The notes: generated by a model not told the origin, from the letters alone. 5,475 nucleotides of DNA from a virus (IMGVR_UViG_2675903578_000013); one strand, 5' to 3'; positions 1-5,475 are shown, counted from the stretch's first letter. Program-made: numbers and translations.

Positions 1-101
1 AGCCAGCTTTCCAGGGATTTCAGCAGCGGTTTCGTTTTCAACTGACGTTCGGCAAGGCGCTGTTTCAGCAGGAAGATGTCGTCAGAAGAGATGTCGTTCA
101 T
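1..101 (-). CDS. hypothetical protein, N-terminal fragment (gene continues beyond the left edge)
   Basis: ATG at 101..99 on the minus strand opens a frame that stays open to position 1; hand translation gives MNDISSDDIFLLKQRLAERQLKTKPLLKSLESW, which looks protein-like, while the opposite-strand frame is Arg/Ser/Cys-rich. No clear Shine-Dalgarno. Not in the supplied ORF track, presumably because the window edge truncates it. Confidence 0.3.
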   Translation of the reverse strand, partial: MNDISSDDIFLLKQRLAERQLKTKPLLKSLESW

Positions 102-203
102 AAGCCCGTATTTTACCGGGCTTATTCTGTGACAACCAGGATAAAGAGATTTACAGCATGGTCAGGGAGGTCAGCAGCCGCTTAGGCTGTCTATAGCGCG
201 GCG

Positions 204-274
204 ATTTTTTTGATACCGATTTGCATTTCATTTGATACCGCTGAAAAACGCCGATACGCAACTTATTTGATACT
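204..274. repeat. direct repeats of TTTGATAC(C/T): two copies of TTTGATACCG exactly 22 bp apart, a third TTTGATAC and a GATAC nearby
   Basis: TTTGATACCG at 209-218 and 231-240; TTTGATAC at 266-273; CCGATACG at 251-258. Read directly from the sequence. Confidence 0.5.
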
Positions 275-300
275 AAATCGGCGCTTTTCTTTTGAGTTTT
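244..300 (-). terminator. hairpin terminator downstream of mom, possibly bidirectional
   Basis: Inverted repeat CGCCGAT (249-255) / ATCGGCG (277-283) with a 21-nt loop. On the minus strand it is followed by TTTTT (complement of 244-248); on the plus strand by CTTTTCTTTTGAGTTTT (284-300). It lies 37 bp past the mom stop codon (320-322). The long loop makes it atypical. Confidence 0.4.
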
Positions 301-319
301 AGAATGAGTTTTTAAGCGT

Positions 320-1057
320 TCATTCACTCTCTTTCAAACCAGTTTTAACTGTTTGTGGTTTTGGGTAAGGCTGGACTTTGAATAGCTTTGTGTTAAGGCG
401 TTTTCTGGCTCTCTTGTCCAGAAACCGGATGTAACGAAACTGACGGAATTTATGAACACTGGCTCTGTCGATATTAGCCCGCAGATGTTCACCTCGCTGT
501 CCTCCTCGTTTGATTGCATTCTTGCAAATCTCGTGATACCACTCGCCATCAAGTTCATAGAATGTTGTTTCATGACTGCCTACATAATCAAAATTGCTTG
601 CCTGGTACACGACACCAAGACAGCCACAACGCTCATCTGCAAACGACTGAACCCACTGCACCTGCGGATAAAGTTGTCTGATTAGTTTGAGCGCGTAACT
701 GATTGCCCTTGATTCGGAGTTTCTCGGCATACAGTCATGCAGCCATAACCGGTTAAGCTCCATATATTCGCGGTTCTGCGTGCCAGTTACGACGCGTGCA
801 CCATTGTTTGGATTAAGGGCATAACCCCATTGCATTACGCCAACCAGCTCCCGTTCTGAAAATATGCCCAGATGAAGGTAGGAATTATTTACGAAACGAT
901 GGCTGTAATGTTTATTGACGACGACCAGCCGGGCCAGCCAGCAACTTATTGTCTCAACCCGTAACTCACGGGAGCCATAACCGACGATATTGTCGTTATA
1001 GTGAATAAGTTCAGGCGTGCTGATGATACGGGATGTAACTTGCTTTCTGTTCCCCAC
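320..1057 (-). CDS. mom: Mom-like DNA modification protein (anti-restriction adenine modification)
   Basis: The 310-aa open frame (320..1252) has its 5' end overlapping, in another frame, a gene for a Com-like zinc-finger protein, which is the arrangement of the phage Mu com-mom operon. I cannot reproduce the Mu Mom sequence from memory, so the family call rests mainly on this context. Start is uncertain: I place it at GTG 1057..1055, which has AAGGA about 9 nt upstream and overlaps the com 3' end by about 15 codons. The frame stays open up to GTG 1252 and ATG 1219, but those would overlap all of com. Stop codon TGA at 322..320. Confidence 0.65.
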
Positions 1058-1211
1058 GACAGGATTTCCTTGTGTATGTGGGGTGCTCTGTGGCGCTCTG
1101 AGATGTGATTTGATTGAGGGTTTTACAGCGCGGACATTTAACTTCCAGATAACTGAAGCTGGCTCGTGCCAGTAGCTTGTTACAATGTCGGCACCGTATG
1201 TTTCGATACAT
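1011..1211 (-). CDS. com: Com-like zinc-finger translational activator of mom
   Basis: ATG at 1211..1209 preceded by AGGAGG (1227..1222). The product [30 protein letters not shown]... has two CxxC pairs and closely matches my recollection of Mu Com (MKSIRCKNCNKLLFKADSFDHIEIRCPRCK...). The 66-aa size fits Mu Com at roughly 62 aa. The ORF-track entry (1011..1256) begins at a TTG; the internal ATG is the likely true start. Confidence 0.75.
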
Positions 1212-1300
1212 GGCCGCATAACCTCCTGCTTTGTTGTTGATATCTTTATCACTCAATCGATCGACAAAAACGATCGATTTGATTTATTTAATTGATACAA
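1212..1300 (-). promoter_or_regulatory. putative com/mom promoter and control region with clustered GATC (Dam) sites
   Basis: AT-rich region directly upstream of com. GATC at 1259-1262 and 1272-1275, both inside short palindromes (TCGATCGA, CGATCGAT), and a third at 1341-1344. In Mu, mom transcription depends on Dam methylation of GATC sites upstream of the promoter. I could not place -35/-10 hexamers confidently. Confidence 0.4.
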
Positions 1301-1467
1301 CAAATAACACGAAATGTCATTAGCGAAAATTTATGAGTTTGATCACTAATTTTAAACGGTGCTGTAACGCATAAGTGCTGAATGATTGTACATTTGAATA
1401 CCGCAAAGCAAACAAATCAACTAATTTATAGAAGTCAATTGGTTAATTGCCAGCGTAAGAGGCTGCT

Positions 1468-1928: not shown

Positions 1929-2183
1929 TTACATCATGGTACTGTCAGTTCCGGGCTGAGCCGGGTCTGGTTGCTCTGGCTGCGCGTCGGTTTTCGGCTC
2001 ATTATCAGCATCACTGGCCGCAACTGCTGGCCCAATAAGTTTTGCCAGCACTTCATCAACGTAAGTGTCGATTTGTGCCTCAAAATCCTTGCGGACCTGC
2101 GCTTTCAGCAACTTATTTACTTCACCGGAATACAGTGCCTGTTTTACCAGGTCTTCAGTGACGGTGCCTTTAATTTCTGGCAT
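1929..2183 (-). CDS. hypothetical small acidic protein (84 aa)
   Basis: ATG at 2183..2181 with a strong AAGGAGG about 6 nt upstream. Product MPEIKGTVTEDLVKQALYSGEV... is strongly acidic with a Pro/Gln/Asp-rich C-terminal tail. It sits 35 bp downstream of the 60-aa gene, so the two are probably co-transcribed. Confidence 0.6.
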   Translation of the reverse strand: MPEIKGTVTEDLVKQALYSGEVNKLLKAQVRKDFEAQIDTYVDEVLAKLIGPAVAASDADNEPKTDAQPEQPDPAQPGTDSTMM

Positions 2184-2218: not shown

Positions 2219-2401
2219 TCAGGGCTGGGTCGGGTCTTTTGGGAGCGGAGTTACCTGCGCTGTTTTACTGAGTTTTTCAGCTGCTGCGTCCTCAATTTTG
2301 CGGCGAACATAATTTCTGATGGCCTTATAACCACCACTCACCAGATATAACGCACATACTGCCGTGCAGAAATACAATAAAATAAGCTGTAAAAATGTCA
2401 T
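2219..2401 (-). CDS. hypothetical small membrane protein (60 aa, one predicted N-terminal TM helix)
   Basis: ATG at 2401..2399 with GGGAGGG 3-4 nt upstream. Product MTFLQLILLYFCTAVCALYLVSGGYKAIRNYVRRKIEDAAAEKLSK... has a hydrophobic stretch (residues 3-24) followed by a charged segment. The ORF-track entry (2219..2413) starts at an upstream TTG. Confidence 0.55.
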   Translation of the reverse strand: MTFLQLILLYFCTAVCALYLVSGGYKAIRNYVRRKIEDAAAEKLSKTAQVTPLPKDPTQP

Positions 2402-2497
2402 TATCCCTCCCAATTATTGACATGGTGTTGACACCGGTAATATCTGTTAGGTAAAAAGGTGCACTGCATTTTTTGCTTTGGATATAACGATCTTTTT

Positions 2498-2545: not shown

Positions 2546-3723
2546 TTACGCGTTATTCACTTCCACCACGATACTGTCAATCAGTACCGGGTAAGTCGCA
2601 TTTTTAGTGATATCGGTCACGCGCAACTTGTCTGCCGTAAACGTGCCGACCGGAGACTGCGACAGCATGAATGGTGTCCCGTCCTTACCATCAATGACCG
2701 GCGTCACCTCAATACTGTTGTTACCGGCAAAACGGAAGCCCAGCGTATGCCATTCGTTATTAAATGCGCCGAATGACCCCAGCTTCGTGTTCTGCGCCGT
2801 GTTTCCTTTGTGATACATCACGTTAAGGTCTGTGGCATCGCTCTGTACGTAGAACGATGCCAGCAGGTTATGACCGGCATTTCCTTCCAGAGTAACCCCT
2901 TGCGGCAGGGCAGAAACCGGCCAGTACAGCGCCAGTGCGTACTGATTAGCCGTAAGCGCGCCATCGAGTTTAAAACGACAACTGACAAGACCACCTTTAC
3001 CCAGCAGGTCCGCACCATTACCAGCATCATGCTCAAGGTACCAGGGGGCTCTTCCTGTTTCCTTGGTCAGTTTCATTGCCTTACCCCCGCTGGCTCCGGC
3101 ATCATCCACGATTTGAGCCTTGCCACCTCCGGCAGCCCAACCCTGTGGTGTCAACCGTCCTTCAGACTCAGATGCCCGGTAAGCAAATAGCGTACTCATC
3201 GTCGTGGTGTCTGCGGGTGGCGTGGACGGTTTTGATGGTGTATCAGGTGACGGCTTCTCATCCGGTGGTGTCACGGTCTGCCCACGCATCAGTTCAGCCG
3301 TGCGCCCTGCATGGAGCATAATAGCTGAGGCCAGACGGTCTGAAATGACGCCCCTGCGTGCCCATGAGCTGAAATGGCTGTCACGCTGTGTCGAAACAAA
3401 ACTGCCCTGGGTTCGGGATGCTGCACCGTAATACCCGACAGCCACAATATCCGGGTCTTCCGCCGGAGCATTCGTTGGCGTGCTCTGTCCATTCTCATCC
3501 GTCAGGAACGGTACAAAGAAAATTTTCTGTGCTTCCTTGCCTTTGTAGCCACCGTATACTGCCTCATATTTATCGGTGCCAGCGTTTTTCCAGTAATACG
3601 TGGTATCACCGCAAATCCACGGCACCGTGGTGGCATTTCCACTCACGCACTGCGCAGCAAGCGGAGCCAGGTCAGTTCTGAACTGCTGAACCATGGCCGT
3701 GAATAAACTATTATGCTGCTGGC
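2546..3723 (-). CDS. large hypothetical protein, C-terminal 392 aa; the 5' part is hidden in the N-run
   Basis: Continuous open frame from the N-run edge (3723) to stop TAA at 2548..2546. The translation has a globular region with Cys/His-containing segments (VPWICGDTTYYWKNAG ... HFSSWARRGV ... IMLHAGRTAEL), then a Pro/Thr/Ser-rich linker (TPPDEKPSPDTPSKPSTPPADTTT), then a Gly/Asn/Thr-rich C-terminal domain of about 210 aa. No family recognised by eye. The ORF-track frame reaches 4036 through the N's. Confidence 0.6.
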
Positions 3724-4021
3724 NNNNNNNNNNNNNNNNNNNNNNNNNNNNNNNNNNNNNNNNNNNNNNNNNNNNNNNNNNNNNNNNNNNNNNNNNNNNN
3801 NNNNNNNNNNNNNNNNNNNNNNNNNNNNNNNNNNNNNNNNNNNNNNNNNNNNNNNNNNNNNNNNNNNNNNNNNNNNNNNNNNNNNNNNNNNNNNNNNNNN
3901 NNNNNNNNNNNNNNNNNNNNNNNNNNNNNNNNNNNNNNNNNNNNNNNNNNNNNNNNNNNNNNNNNNNNNNNNNNNNNNNNNNNNNNNNNNNNNNNNNNNN
4001 NNNNNNNNNNNNNNNNNNNNN
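3724..4021. other. run of 298 N (unresolved or masked sequence)
   Basis: Literal N characters in the input. Confidence 0.98.
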
Positions 4022-4676
4022 GCAGTTTTTTGGCAATATGCAACCCCTGACCGACAGTCCCGTACTGGCCTTTTGCCAGATCAGCTTTCGGGTGGTTTAT
4101 CCCGCTCATATCCTGAACATCATGCAGGCAGTGGTCTGCCGGAATGATGTCGTTGTATGTACACGACGTACCGTTGGGCGTTACCGTACTGCGGCGTGCC
4201 AGTTGCTTAATNNNNNNNNNNNNNNNNNNNNNNNNNNNNNNNNNNNNNNNNNNNNNNNNNNNNNNNNNNNNNNNNNNNNNNNNNNNNNNNNNNNNNNNNN
4301 NNNNNNNNNNNNNNNNNNNNNNNNNNNNNNNNNNNNNNNNNNNNNNNNNNNNNNNNNNNNNNNNNNNNNNNNNNNNNNNNNNNNNNNNNNNNNNNNNNNN
4401 NNNNNNNNNNNNNNNNNNNNNNNNNNNNNNNNNNNNNNNNNNNNNNNNNNNNNNNNNNNNNNNNNNNNNNNNNNNNNNNNNGGGATTACCGGATACCGGC
4501 ATTACCCATAATGGCTCTTTCGTGCTGAAGCGGATCACGCAGTCTGCGAAGGTGATCCCCCCTTTATTACCCGAAGGGCGGAAAGGGCTTTCAATAAATG
4601 CCACCGTGCCACCGGCAACCTTGACTGAAAACTCTCCGGGCATGGCGGAGAGCATTTTCCACTTGGAGTCTGACAT
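4022..4676 (-). CDS. hypothetical protein, N-terminal part (a separate upstream gene or the 5' part of the large ORF); interrupted by an N-run
   Basis: ATG at 4676..4674 begins MSDSKWKMLSAMPGEFSVKVAGGTVAFIESPFRPSGNKGGITFADCVIRFSTKEPLWVMPVSGNP (4482-4676). The same frame is open across the 63 codons of real sequence at 4022-4211, on the far side of the 270-nt N-run. After the second N-run this frame stops at 3711-3713 while a different frame is open, so the gene either ends inside 3724-4021 or the gap length is not exact. Weak Shine-Dalgarno. Confidence 0.45.
4212..4481. other. run of 270 N (unresolved or masked sequence)
   Basis: Literal N characters in the input. Confidence 0.98.
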
Positions 4677-4749
4677 CGTCTTTTCTGCCTGTTTCTGAAT
4701 TAAACAGAGTCAGAATAGCGACCGCTGAAAAATATGTGTTTTGCGGAAA

Positions 4750-4781
4750 TTCAAAAAAGCGTCACGGTACTTTTGGTGACG
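4750..4781 (-). terminator. rho-independent terminator of the invertase gene
   Basis: On the minus strand: CGTCAC (4781..4776), 10-nt loop, GTGACG (4765..4760), then CTTTTTTG (4759..4752). The hairpin overlaps the last codons and the stop codon of the invertase gene. Confidence 0.5.
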
Positions 4782-5334
4782 GAGCTGGTGAGGCAGGAAA
4801 ATAACGATAAAGGGTGGAAAGGCCAATATCAAATATCAGTGCGATTTGTTTACGGGACTCGCCATTAGCCAGCAAACGGGCGATTTGCTCCCGCTCTTTC
4901 TCTGTCAGTTTCTGAGGTCTGCCGCCATGACGCCCCTGAGCACGGGCAGCAGCAAGACCCGCGCGTGTACGTTCAATAATGAGTTCCCGCTCCATTTCCG
5001 CCAGCGCGCCCATTATATGGAAAAAGAAACGTCCCATGGGAGTGGATGTATCAATATTGTCCGTAATGCTGCGGAAGTTAACGCCGCGTTGCCGGAGTTC
5101 TTCTGTTAAAAGGACAAGGTGCTGCATACTGCGTCCAAGGCGATCCAGTTTCCAGACCAGCAGGGTATCCCCTGGCCGGAGTCGCTTTAATGCGCGTTTA
5201 AGTCCGGGACGCTCCCTTGTCTTACCGCTTATTCTGTCTTCGAAAAACAGCTCACATCCTGCACATTCCAGCGCATTTCTTTGTAGCGCCGTATTCTGGT
5301 CATTTGTTGACACCCTGATATACCCAATCAGCAT
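4762..5334 (-). CDS. pin: serine site-specific DNA invertase, Gin/Pin/Cin/Hin family
   Basis: 190-aa product MLIGYIRVSTNDQNTALQRNALECAGCELFFEDRISGKTRERPGLKRALKRL...GDTLLVWKLDRLGRSM...MGRFFFHIMGALAEMERELIIERTRAGLAAARAQGR...LSTLYRYF matches my recollection of Gin/Pin along its whole length, including the catalytic-serine N-terminus (RVSTNDQ) and the C-terminal HTH. ATG at 5334..5332 with AAGGAA upstream. The symbol is a family-level guess; it could equally be named gin or cin. Confidence 0.9.
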   Translation of the reverse strand: MLIGYIRVSTNDQNTALQRNALECAGCELFFEDRISGKTRERPGLKRALKRLRPGDTLLVWKLDRLGRSMQHLVLLTEELRQRGVNFRSITDNIDTSTPMGRFFFHIMGALAEMERELIIERTRAGLAAARAQGRHGGRPQKLTEKEREQIARLLANGESRKQIALIFDIGLSTLYRYFPASPAPSPKVP

Positions 5335-5399
5335 ACGATTTCCTTATTATAAAAAGCCGGAATTGTCGCATGAGGAATAAAACAGAGTTAATCCTGGCT

Positions 5400-5425
5400 T
5401 TCCTGAAAACCTCGGTTTACGGGAA
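5400..5425. other. 26-bp Gin/Pin-type recombination crossover site (gix/pix-like)
   Basis: TTCCTGAAAACC-TC-GGTTTACGGGAA: two imperfectly inverted 12-bp half-sites around a central dinucleotide. It is nearly identical to the Mu gix sequence as I remember it (TTCCTGTAAACCGAGGTTTTGGATAA and its complement). It lies 66 bp upstream of the invertase start, as gixR does relative to gin in Mu. Confidence 0.6.
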
Positions 5426-5475
5426 ACGGTAAACAGGGCGGCGAATGCTCTGCCATCGGACGGCACCGCCGTTGC
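5402..5475 (+). CDS. possible start-less variable C-terminal tail-fibre cassette beginning at the crossover site (fragment, continues beyond the right edge)
   Basis: Inference from Mu G-segment and e14 P-region architecture: the cassette next to the invertase-proximal site reads away from the invertase, on the opposite strand, and has no start codon of its own. Consistent with that, only one plus-strand frame is open from 5381 through the site to the window end (…FPENLGLRETVNRAANALPSDGTAVA) and it contains no start codon. The stretch is too short to confirm coding. Confidence 0.2.

Follow-up and report, generated by a model that had tools for sequence, protein, structure and literature searches.

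The stretch of DNA analysed here, referred to as the window, comprises 5,475 nt of viral sequence and carries two partly overlapping genes on its minus strand, com and mom, together with the right terminal region of a Mu-like prophage. The com coding sequence (1011..1211, minus strand) starts with ATG at 1211..1209, ends with TGA at 1013..1011 and encodes 66 aa. The mom coding sequence (320..1057, minus strand) extends from a GTG start at 1057..1055 to a TGA stop at 322..320 and encodes 245 aa. An earlier interpretation made from the sequence alone, termed the sequence-only reading below, had described a gene for a small CxxC...CxxC protein that overlaps the 5' end of a longer open reading frame (ORF) in another frame, as com overlaps mom. 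This arrangement was confirmed: the 3' end of com and the 5' end of mom share 47 nt (1011..1057, minus strand) in different reading frames. All Com-coupled relatives examined show an overlap of 44-68 nt, measured to the position that aligns with the GTG of the window, although these relatives may use other start codons. A Shine-Dalgarno (SD) sequence AGGAGG, read from the sequence, is located 10 nt upstream of the com ATG (1222..1227, minus strand), and the same AGGAGG precedes the com ATG of two relatives (L028 and L030) by 9 nt.

The product of the longer ORF had been proposed to be Mom. It matches the Pfam family PF25680 over the entire profile (positions 1-202 of 202; E 7.8e-78; 261.2 bits at a cut-off of 27.1) as well as PHROG 1384, "Mom-like" (E 2.8e-83). 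BLASTP of both translations, suggested at the time as a check, returned significant matches to the two Mu proteins, with 78% identity to Mu Mom (E 1e-139) and 45% identity over 58 residues to Mu Com (E 2e-14). The solved structure of Mu Mom (PDB 8BV8) is matched over residues 5-233 with an E value of 2.4e-123. The GTG at 1057, which had been put forward as the likely mom start inside the 3' end of com, falls exactly on Val11 in the alignment with the 241-aa product annotated for Mu in NC_000929 and agrees with the RefSeq start. In Mu, the delta-10 form of Mom that begins at Val11 is the one that was crystallised, and it is fully active (PMC13219725). A longer Mom isoform was also considered, as the mom frame stays open across com and defines a 310-aa ORF (320..1252). 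However, the open stretch before the mom start is limited to 27 codons in a relative of 97.5% identity, to 8 in Mu and to 1 in L048. Since openness upstream of the GTG is not conserved among relatives, the 310-aa ORF is attributed to chance and the long isoform was rejected.

Mom attaches glycine from Gly-tRNA(Gly) to adenine N6 of double-stranded DNA; rearrangement of this adduct then yields N6-carbamoylmethyl-adenine (PMC13219725). A 2026 study found that W48, H58, Y59, R111, S124, D149, R151, Y159 and W181 of Mu Mom are required for its function or contribute strongly to it, and also studied Y28 (PMC13219725). Pairwise alignment shows all ten of these residues to be identical in the window protein (10/10). 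The essential helix-turn-helix (HTH)-like insertion of Mu Mom, at residues 175-209 approximately (PMC13219725), aligns without gaps and with 28 of 35 residues identical, and the sole notable difference between the two proteins is a 12-residue C-terminal extension of the window protein. Judged by this identity, the protein probably adopts the GNAT fold with the Mom-specific HTH-like insertion and would be a tRNA(Gly)-dependent adenine N6 aminoacyltransferase. The C-terminal extension and the 22% of positions that differ from Mu Mom, 7 of them among the 35 residues of the putatively DNA-binding HTH-like insertion, might instead point to a Mom-family enzyme with another activity, which would use a different aminoacyl-tRNA or acyl donor or a different DNA site and produce another adduct or modification pattern. 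However, 78% identity is normally well within the range of one enzyme specificity. As all residues reported to be important for the activity or structure of Mu Mom are, in addition, identical (PMC13219725), such a change of activity appears extremely improbable.

The small protein was recognised as Com by its match to PF10122 (Zn_ribbon_Com, "Mu-like prophage protein Com"; E 1.3e-12; 47.4 bits at a cut-off of 22.9) and by matches to PHROGs 6417 and 13819 ("translational regulator" and "gpCom control of modification"), in line with the resemblance to Mu Com noted from the sequence alone. At 45%, Com is far less similar to its Mu counterpart than Mom is at 78%. It contains the stretch CPRCK and the cysteine pattern C7xxC10...C26xxC29, whose cysteines align with Cys6, 9, 26 and 29 of Mu Com, the zinc ligands of that protein (PMC3299994). 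By analogy with Mu, the 66-aa protein would be a zinc-ribbon RNA-binding translational activator. A sequence search of the PDB yielded no solved Com structure. A mechanical ORF call places the start of com at a TTG codon and predicts 81 aa (1011..1256). This start was rejected in favour of ATG 1211, which aligns with Met1 of Mu Com, is annotated by RefSeq in identical DNA and gives Com the N-terminal length seen in relatives, and is most likely the real com start.

In Mu, the mom GUG sits in the stem of a translation-inhibition hairpin (PMC6483171), and Com activates mom translation by binding to a short hairpin immediately 5' of this structure (PMC6483171, PMC3378877). The Com target defined by SELEX and footprinting is 5'-CC(N)2-3GAG-3', presented by a hairpin that lies close to the inhibitory one and has a C-G pair closing its 6-nt loop (PMC6483171). 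Both elements can be traced in the window. The predicted translation-inhibition hairpin (1052..1083, minus strand) is formed by pairing of CCCCAC (1083..1078) with GUGGGG (1057..1052), and the mom GUG start lies within its 3' arm. It is found in both the MFE and the centroid fold of the window RNA, and its 20-nt loop contains an inner helix in which part of the SD-like sequence AAGGAAA (1071..1065) is paired. Mu folds an equivalent hairpin, UCCCAC...GUGGGA, and shares with the window the placement of the GUG in the 3' arm of a CCCAC/GUGGG stem. With its 6-bp outer stem, 20-nt loop and inner helix, however, the hairpin of the window is longer and predicted to be more stable (-11.5 kcal/mol for the isolated hairpin, z -2.07, versus -8.7 kcal/mol in Mu).

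A putative Com-binding hairpin (1083..1096, minus strand; GCGC-CACAGA-GCAC) is located immediately 5' of the inhibitory hairpin, as is a 4-bp hairpin with the CC(N)3GAG loop in Mu. In and around its 6-nt loop it carries the motif CC-ACA-GAG (1093..1086), and the published target is consequently present in its CC(N)3GAG form at the place homologous to Mu. A C.A mismatch occupies the second pair of the stem in the window and three relatives, in contrast to Mu, and because of it the Com hairpin of the window is predicted to be weaker (-1.7 kcal/mol). In L007, which encodes an identical Mom, a U in place of the C at the mismatch position (1095) restores the pair (-4.3 kcal/mol). Folding of the RNA around 1011-1080 had been proposed as a way of detecting a stem-loop that sequesters the mom start. 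Such a hairpin was indeed found, but the element as a whole extends to 1096, beyond the proposed interval. The 53-nt two-hairpin element has a predicted energy of -14.3 kcal/mol (z -2.56; 3 of 200 shuffles as good). Folding of the whole 111-nt junction fragment is no better than that of shuffled sequences (z -0.22), and only the local elements stand out. Nucleotide 1083 can pair in either hairpin and covaries with both partners, which fits a competition between the two structures; this covariation represents only one or two evolutionary events. The Rfam search gave no family for either the Com target or the inhibitory hairpin; its only matches, elsewhere in the window, are at chance level.

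Conservation of these structures was assessed on com-mom junctions obtained by scanning viral contigs with the window Mom, which identified 80 loci at 66-100% identity. Eleven distinct Com-coupled mom junctions were aligned (alignment A1). The two-hairpin structure leaves 96% of cells paired in these junctions, compared to 23-61% when the partners are slid by 1-3 columns. All four pairs of the Com hairpin show double, compensatory changes, and its stem reads, for example, AUGC/GCAU in Mu, GCAC/GUGC in L033 and GCGU/ACGC in L030. The inhibitory stem is paired in 100% of cases. Its outermost pair is C-G in seven junctions and U-A in four, and the two substitutions that separate the window from Mu at this pair are each synonymous in the reading frame concerned. 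In L039, one C-G pair of the inhibitory hairpin is replaced by U-G. The five inner pairs of this stem are essentially invariant and therefore uninformative. For these 11 sequences, which derive from a few lineages and are the same ones from which the structure was read, the observed covariation score was reached by none of 500 column shuffles, and 3 of 500 had at least as many pairs with changes on both sides. More distant Com-coupled loci (L032, L046 and L047) have different sequences and likewise show a predicted hairpin near the mom start that overlaps an SD-like sequence; two of them (L046 and L047) also contain a CC(N)2GAG motif. Mom homologues of approximately 70% identity that are located inside 40-50-kb contigs occur without com.

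The sequence-only reading described the module as "translationally coupled," and its heading thereby presupposed that mom is switched on in cis. In such a scenario, ribosomes translating com would melt the hairpin and the binding of Com would not be the main trigger. Indeed, the com ORF runs through the entire hairpin 1083..1052 and ends 47 nt past the GUG, which means that ribosomes translating com must unfold it, and every Com-coupled relative examined retains the overlap. However, Com of Mu activates the translation of mom by attaching to a hairpin of the mRNA next to the inhibitory one (PMC6483171, PMC3378877), and a conserved CC(N)3GAG motif in a covarying hairpin would be unnecessary if control were purely in cis. 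Activation mainly in cis is therefore considered distinctly unlikely. A contribution in cis is possible alongside that of Com, as ribosomes on com must also traverse the hairpin. Of the earlier description, the layout for Com-dependent activation stands, while classical coupling is at odds with the binding of Mu Com to the mRNA (PMC6483171, PMC3378877). "Translationally coupled" should rather be read as "translationally activated by Com."

Transcription of mom in Mu depends on the activator C, which acts at a weak promoter with a poor -35 element, a T stretch and a non-consensus -10 element (PMC3378877; PMC4461284). Upstream GATC sites provide a further gate through Dam methylation and OxyR, and Fis acts as an additional silencer (PMC3378877; PMC4461284). 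Upstream of com, the window contains a perfect inverted repeat (I6), AATCGATCG-N7-CGATCGATT (1255..1279), with two Dam sites (GATC 1259-1262 and 1272-1275), and a third GATC is located at 1341-1344. GATC is under-represented in the window (8 found versus 15.9 expected), and three of the eight sites are concentrated in an 86-bp stretch directly upstream of com. The region of the palindrome aligns with the GATC cluster of Mu, and a GATCGATT-type site occurs in most of the Com-coupled lineages examined. By analogy with Mu, the region 1255..1279 is likely to serve as a methylation-sensitive control of the operon.

The core of Mu Pmom (C-binding site, T6 run and TAAGAT) cannot be aligned with the window lineage and lies opposite a 34-column gap (alignment A2). 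The pattern TTAT-N6-ATAA, which we take to be that of the Mu C site, is absent upstream of com, and a promoter scan of the minus strand found no sigma-70-like promoter there. A motif that looks like the late-promoter signature of this phage, CGCAAAWM-N18-24-TAnnCT, occurs in only three copies in the 43.6-kb prophage locus, upstream of the lysozyme gene, the head protease gene and a DUF6645 gene. Upstream of com, only a degenerate copy of this late-promoter-like motif is found (1327..1292), located upstream of the palindrome. With only this degenerate copy and no Mu core, the transcription start site could therefore lie either downstream or upstream of the palindrome. A downstream start could represent the order of Mu in compressed form, and an upstream start could place the palindrome in the leader.

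The missing C-site/T6/-10 segment of Mu, together with the Dam palindrome, raises the possibility that the window lineage is wired differently from Mu at the transcriptional level, a reading that is regarded as tentative and rather doubtful. Depending on the start site, the palindrome would form part of the promoter core (about -20 to -45) or, if the promoter is 1327..1292, of the transcribed leader. If true, Dam/OxyR-type gating and the use of the activator would follow a different logic with either placement. It is also conceivable, but less likely, that Mom prefers another DNA sequence on account of its 22% divergence and its C-terminal extension. In all other sequence features compared, the window agrees with the com-mom system of Mu; the missing Pmom core bears on the transcription of the operon and not on the identity of com and mom.

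Downstream of mom, the right terminal region of the prophage (192..319, minus strand) ends with ...CGCTATA-3' at position 192. In 12 other loci the sequence is identical or nearly so over the 128 nt past the mom stop codon and is then followed by unrelated flanks. Because these 12 loci diverge at that base, position 192 marks the prophage terminus, and the element has inserted at many sites. Three TTTGATAC repeats within this region (209-216, 231-238 and 266-273; direct repeats D1 and D2) are likely transposase-binding sites. Beyond the terminus, window positions 1-191 match an IS66-family element, and this copy of the prophage therefore inserted into an IS. A complete genome with the same module illustrates the setting of the operon: its prophage has genes for a transposase, for an AAA ATPase located where Mu has MuB, for Kil and Gam, for a head and tail of the Mu type, for an invertase and for a 140-aa Mor-family protein, the last of these adjoining the lysozyme gene in the position of Mu C. 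Taken together, window positions 192-1344 very probably represent the right-end late operon (control region, com and mom) of a Mu-like transposable E. coli prophage.

The module could also be an intact but silent passenger of a defective prophage that is never induced, without a present role in anti-restriction. One genome with this module has a prophage that contains two IS66-family insertions and whose transposase gene is frameshifted, and in the window the prophage end abuts an IS66-family element, with the rest of the prophage lying beyond the window. Against this scenario, the two ORFs are intact, as are the two RNA hairpins, the SD sequences and the GATC palindrome, Mom is 100% identical in several independent loci, and the occurrence of the same end sequence in 13 different flanks indicates recent transposition. 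A silent module is accordingly judged unlikely.

The preferred reading is that of a com-mom operon of the Mu type. The operon would be transcribed late in the lytic cycle from a weak, activator-dependent promoter gated by the GATC cluster, as suggested by the example of Mu, the GATC cluster itself, the lack of a sigma-70 consensus and the presence of a Mor/C-family activator (WP_000852373.1) in the same type of prophage. Translation of com would come first and yield the 66-aa zinc-ribbon protein, whose ORF, SD sequence and four cysteines are observed here. In the meantime, GUG 1057 and the SD-like AAGGAAA would be locked in the hairpin 1083..1052, as folding and covariation indicate. Com would then bind to the small hairpin 1096..1083, whereupon the inhibitory hairpin would open and ribosomes could start at the GUG. 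The motif and the structure are present in the window, and the binding of Com and the melting of the hairpin are assumed by analogy with the Mu experiments. Acting as a GNAT-fold dimer, Mom would transfer glycine from Gly-tRNA(Gly) to adenine N6 of double-stranded DNA, giving rise to N6-carbamoylmethyl-adenine, an activity suggested by the 78% identity and the complete conservation of the important residues. The modified progeny phage DNA would be resistant to many restriction enzymes. As the best explanation of the data, the com-mom assignment together with this mechanism is given a probability of roughly 0.93, and none of the observations contradicts the assignment. Mom is toxic if it is expressed at the wrong time, which accounts for the layered control of mom.

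Compared to Mu (NC_000929; com 35768..35956, mom 35877..36602), the window shows the same two families in the same gene order and with the same overlap between the 3' end of com and the 5' end of mom. Both systems have a GATC cluster upstream, and both follow the gin invertase gene at the very right end of a transposable phage. They differ in about 3.5 kb of extra genes located between gin and com in the window lineage, and in the terminus of the prophage, which ends with TA in this lineage and with CA in Mu. The Shigella phage SfMu, the Escherichia phage D108 and Yersinia Mu-like phages have annotated Com and Mom at their right ends, with Mom proteins that are 76-78% identical, and all of them are nearer to Mu than to the window lineage. 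None of the isolated phages in the collection searched encodes a Mom more than 78% identical to that of the window. The closest counterparts are the Mu-like prophages of E. coli, including those of O157:H7: the window represents one of these, with no difference of substance. Among them, Sp18 has been described as a Mu-like phage encoding a Mom homologue (PMC3299994).

The segment comprising com, mom and the right end was detected at a coverage of at least 80% in 226 of 5,426 complete E. coli genomes. It shows approximately 95% DNA identity in O157:H7 and other STEC and 99-100% identity in 15 other records. The module, present in roughly 4% of the complete E. coli genomes, those of O157:H7 and other STEC among them, is thus a common element of the E. 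coli mobilome. Where other E. coli genomes carry identical DNA, RefSeq places both genes at the same coordinates and names the mom product "tRNA(Gly)-dependent adenine aminoacyltransferase Mom" (WP_000528246.1). As identical proteins already carry Mom and Com names in RefSeq, the finding is known, and the window pair is an intact, ordinary copy of the well-known Mu-like com-mom operon. Neither protein matches an NCBIfam model for Mom or Com above the cut-off, and the RefSeq names must therefore stem from another rule. The com product (WP_014334043.1) is listed as a "Com family" protein with the designation "DNA-binding transcriptional regulator." This designation was rejected, as the literature describes Com as an RNA-binding translational activator (PMC6483171, PMC3378877).

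By analogy with Mu, the module would give the prophage a broad anti-restriction function. Since Mom-modified DNA escapes many restriction enzymes, phage released from the strain could infect hosts with other restriction systems. The window adds nothing new to what is known from Mu, and its practical value lies in the correct annotation of Com as an RNA-binding translational activator. It also provides a natural variant of the Com RNA switch that can be used to test the published binding model.

The combination of com with a DNA-modifying enzyme is not confined to mom. Pairs of com and a DNA methyltransferase gene are known from Haemophilus (FluMu Hin1523 and Hia5), Neisseria (Nme1821) and Pseudomonas (B3) (PMC3299994). 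These share with the window a Com homologue encoded upstream of a broad-specificity, DNA-modifying anti-restriction enzyme in the same position of the prophage (PMC3299994). Their payload, however, is an AdoMet-dependent methyltransferase, whereas that of the window is a true GNAT aminoacyltransferase of the Mom family. In one E. coli genome (H82), the com of the window was found adjoining a cytosine methyltransferase gene.

The Mu-like prophage's right end directly adjoins an insertion sequence, as the junction at window position 192 is followed by sequence of an IS66-family (ISEc8-like) element that occupies positions 1-191 and is matched at 99-100% identity. The prophage end abuts this element without intervening sequence, which suggests that a copy of the IS served as the target when the Mu-like phage transposed. 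On the minus strand, the terminus reads ...GCGCTATA-3' (window 192-290 region) and ends in TA, whereas the right end of Mu ends in CA. The terminal 100 bp contain three TTTGATAC repeats (209-216, 231-238 and 266-273), together with an inverted repeat of 13 nt (243-255 / 277-289).

Other arrangements of com and mom were found at other loci. In one E. coli genome (entry H82, NZ_CM129862.1 1876769-1877026), the window com is present with 93% DNA identity and is followed by a gene for a DNA cytosine methyltransferase, which replaces mom. This is a further case of payload swapping behind Com. A second arrangement is exhibited by the Mom homologues of loci L049-L082 from the comparison set, which share approximately 66-70% identity and lie well inside viral contigs of 40-80 kb. 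No com was found upstream of the Mom homologues in these loci; what precedes them is a hairpin resembling a terminator, along with a conserved stretch, GGTCACGAGYACACC...TTATTGGAGTRC. Judging from this upstream organization, these Mom genes would have to be under different regulation.

Between the invertase gene and com, where Mu has nothing, the lineage of the window carries a SASA/DUF6645 gene (2546-4676, minus strand) encoding a 684-aa protein. The gene is partly masked by two N runs (3724-4021 and 4212-4481), and ORF calls that span these runs are artefacts. An unmasked copy of the protein revealed a SASA carbohydrate-esterase (sialate O-acetylesterase-type) domain and a C-terminal DUF6645. 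The gene is followed by genes for DUF1378 (2219..2413) and DUF826 (1929..2183), and the trio is similar to the esterase cassette (NanS-p) found in lambdoid Stx phages. Because of this likeness, the three genes may be a cargo block that was moved into the Mu-like phage. A candidate late-promoter signature, CGCAAAWM-N18-24-TAnnCT, occurs only three times in the 43.6-kb prophage locus, always on the phage coding strand and just upstream of the lysozyme, head protease and DUF6645/SASA genes. Copies are located at window 4745..4712 (minus strand) and at positions 31384 and 23197 of the compared locus L083. If this motif were a late promoter, the esterase cargo would be a late gene.

The plus strand carries two additional features. 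A 97-aa ORF (1468-1761), which points away from com and begins at ATG 1501 in RefSeq (86 aa, "hypothetical protein"), showed no match in Pfam, NCBIfam or PHROG; two weak sigma-70-like sites are found nearby (1447-1476 and 1505-1533). Further along (2418-2540), about 90 nt separate a TTGACA-15 nt-TAATAT element from a downstream GC-rich hairpin with a T run (2497-2540), and this interval holds no convincing ORF. This region possibly encodes a small RNA, and an Rfam search of a 191-nt stretch yielded only a weak Esr41 match (22 bits, E 0.024, where the gathering score is 102), which owes its score mostly to the terminator.

Towards the opposite edge of the window, a Gin/Hin-type serine invertase with Resolvase and HTH_7 domains is encoded on the minus strand (4762-5334). 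Just upstream of its gene lies the 26-bp site TTCCTGAAAACCTCGGTTTACGGGAA (5399-5426), which closely matches sequences at both annotated G-segment boundaries of Mu. On the basis of these sequences, the window's right edge should mark the start of the invertible tail-fibre segment.
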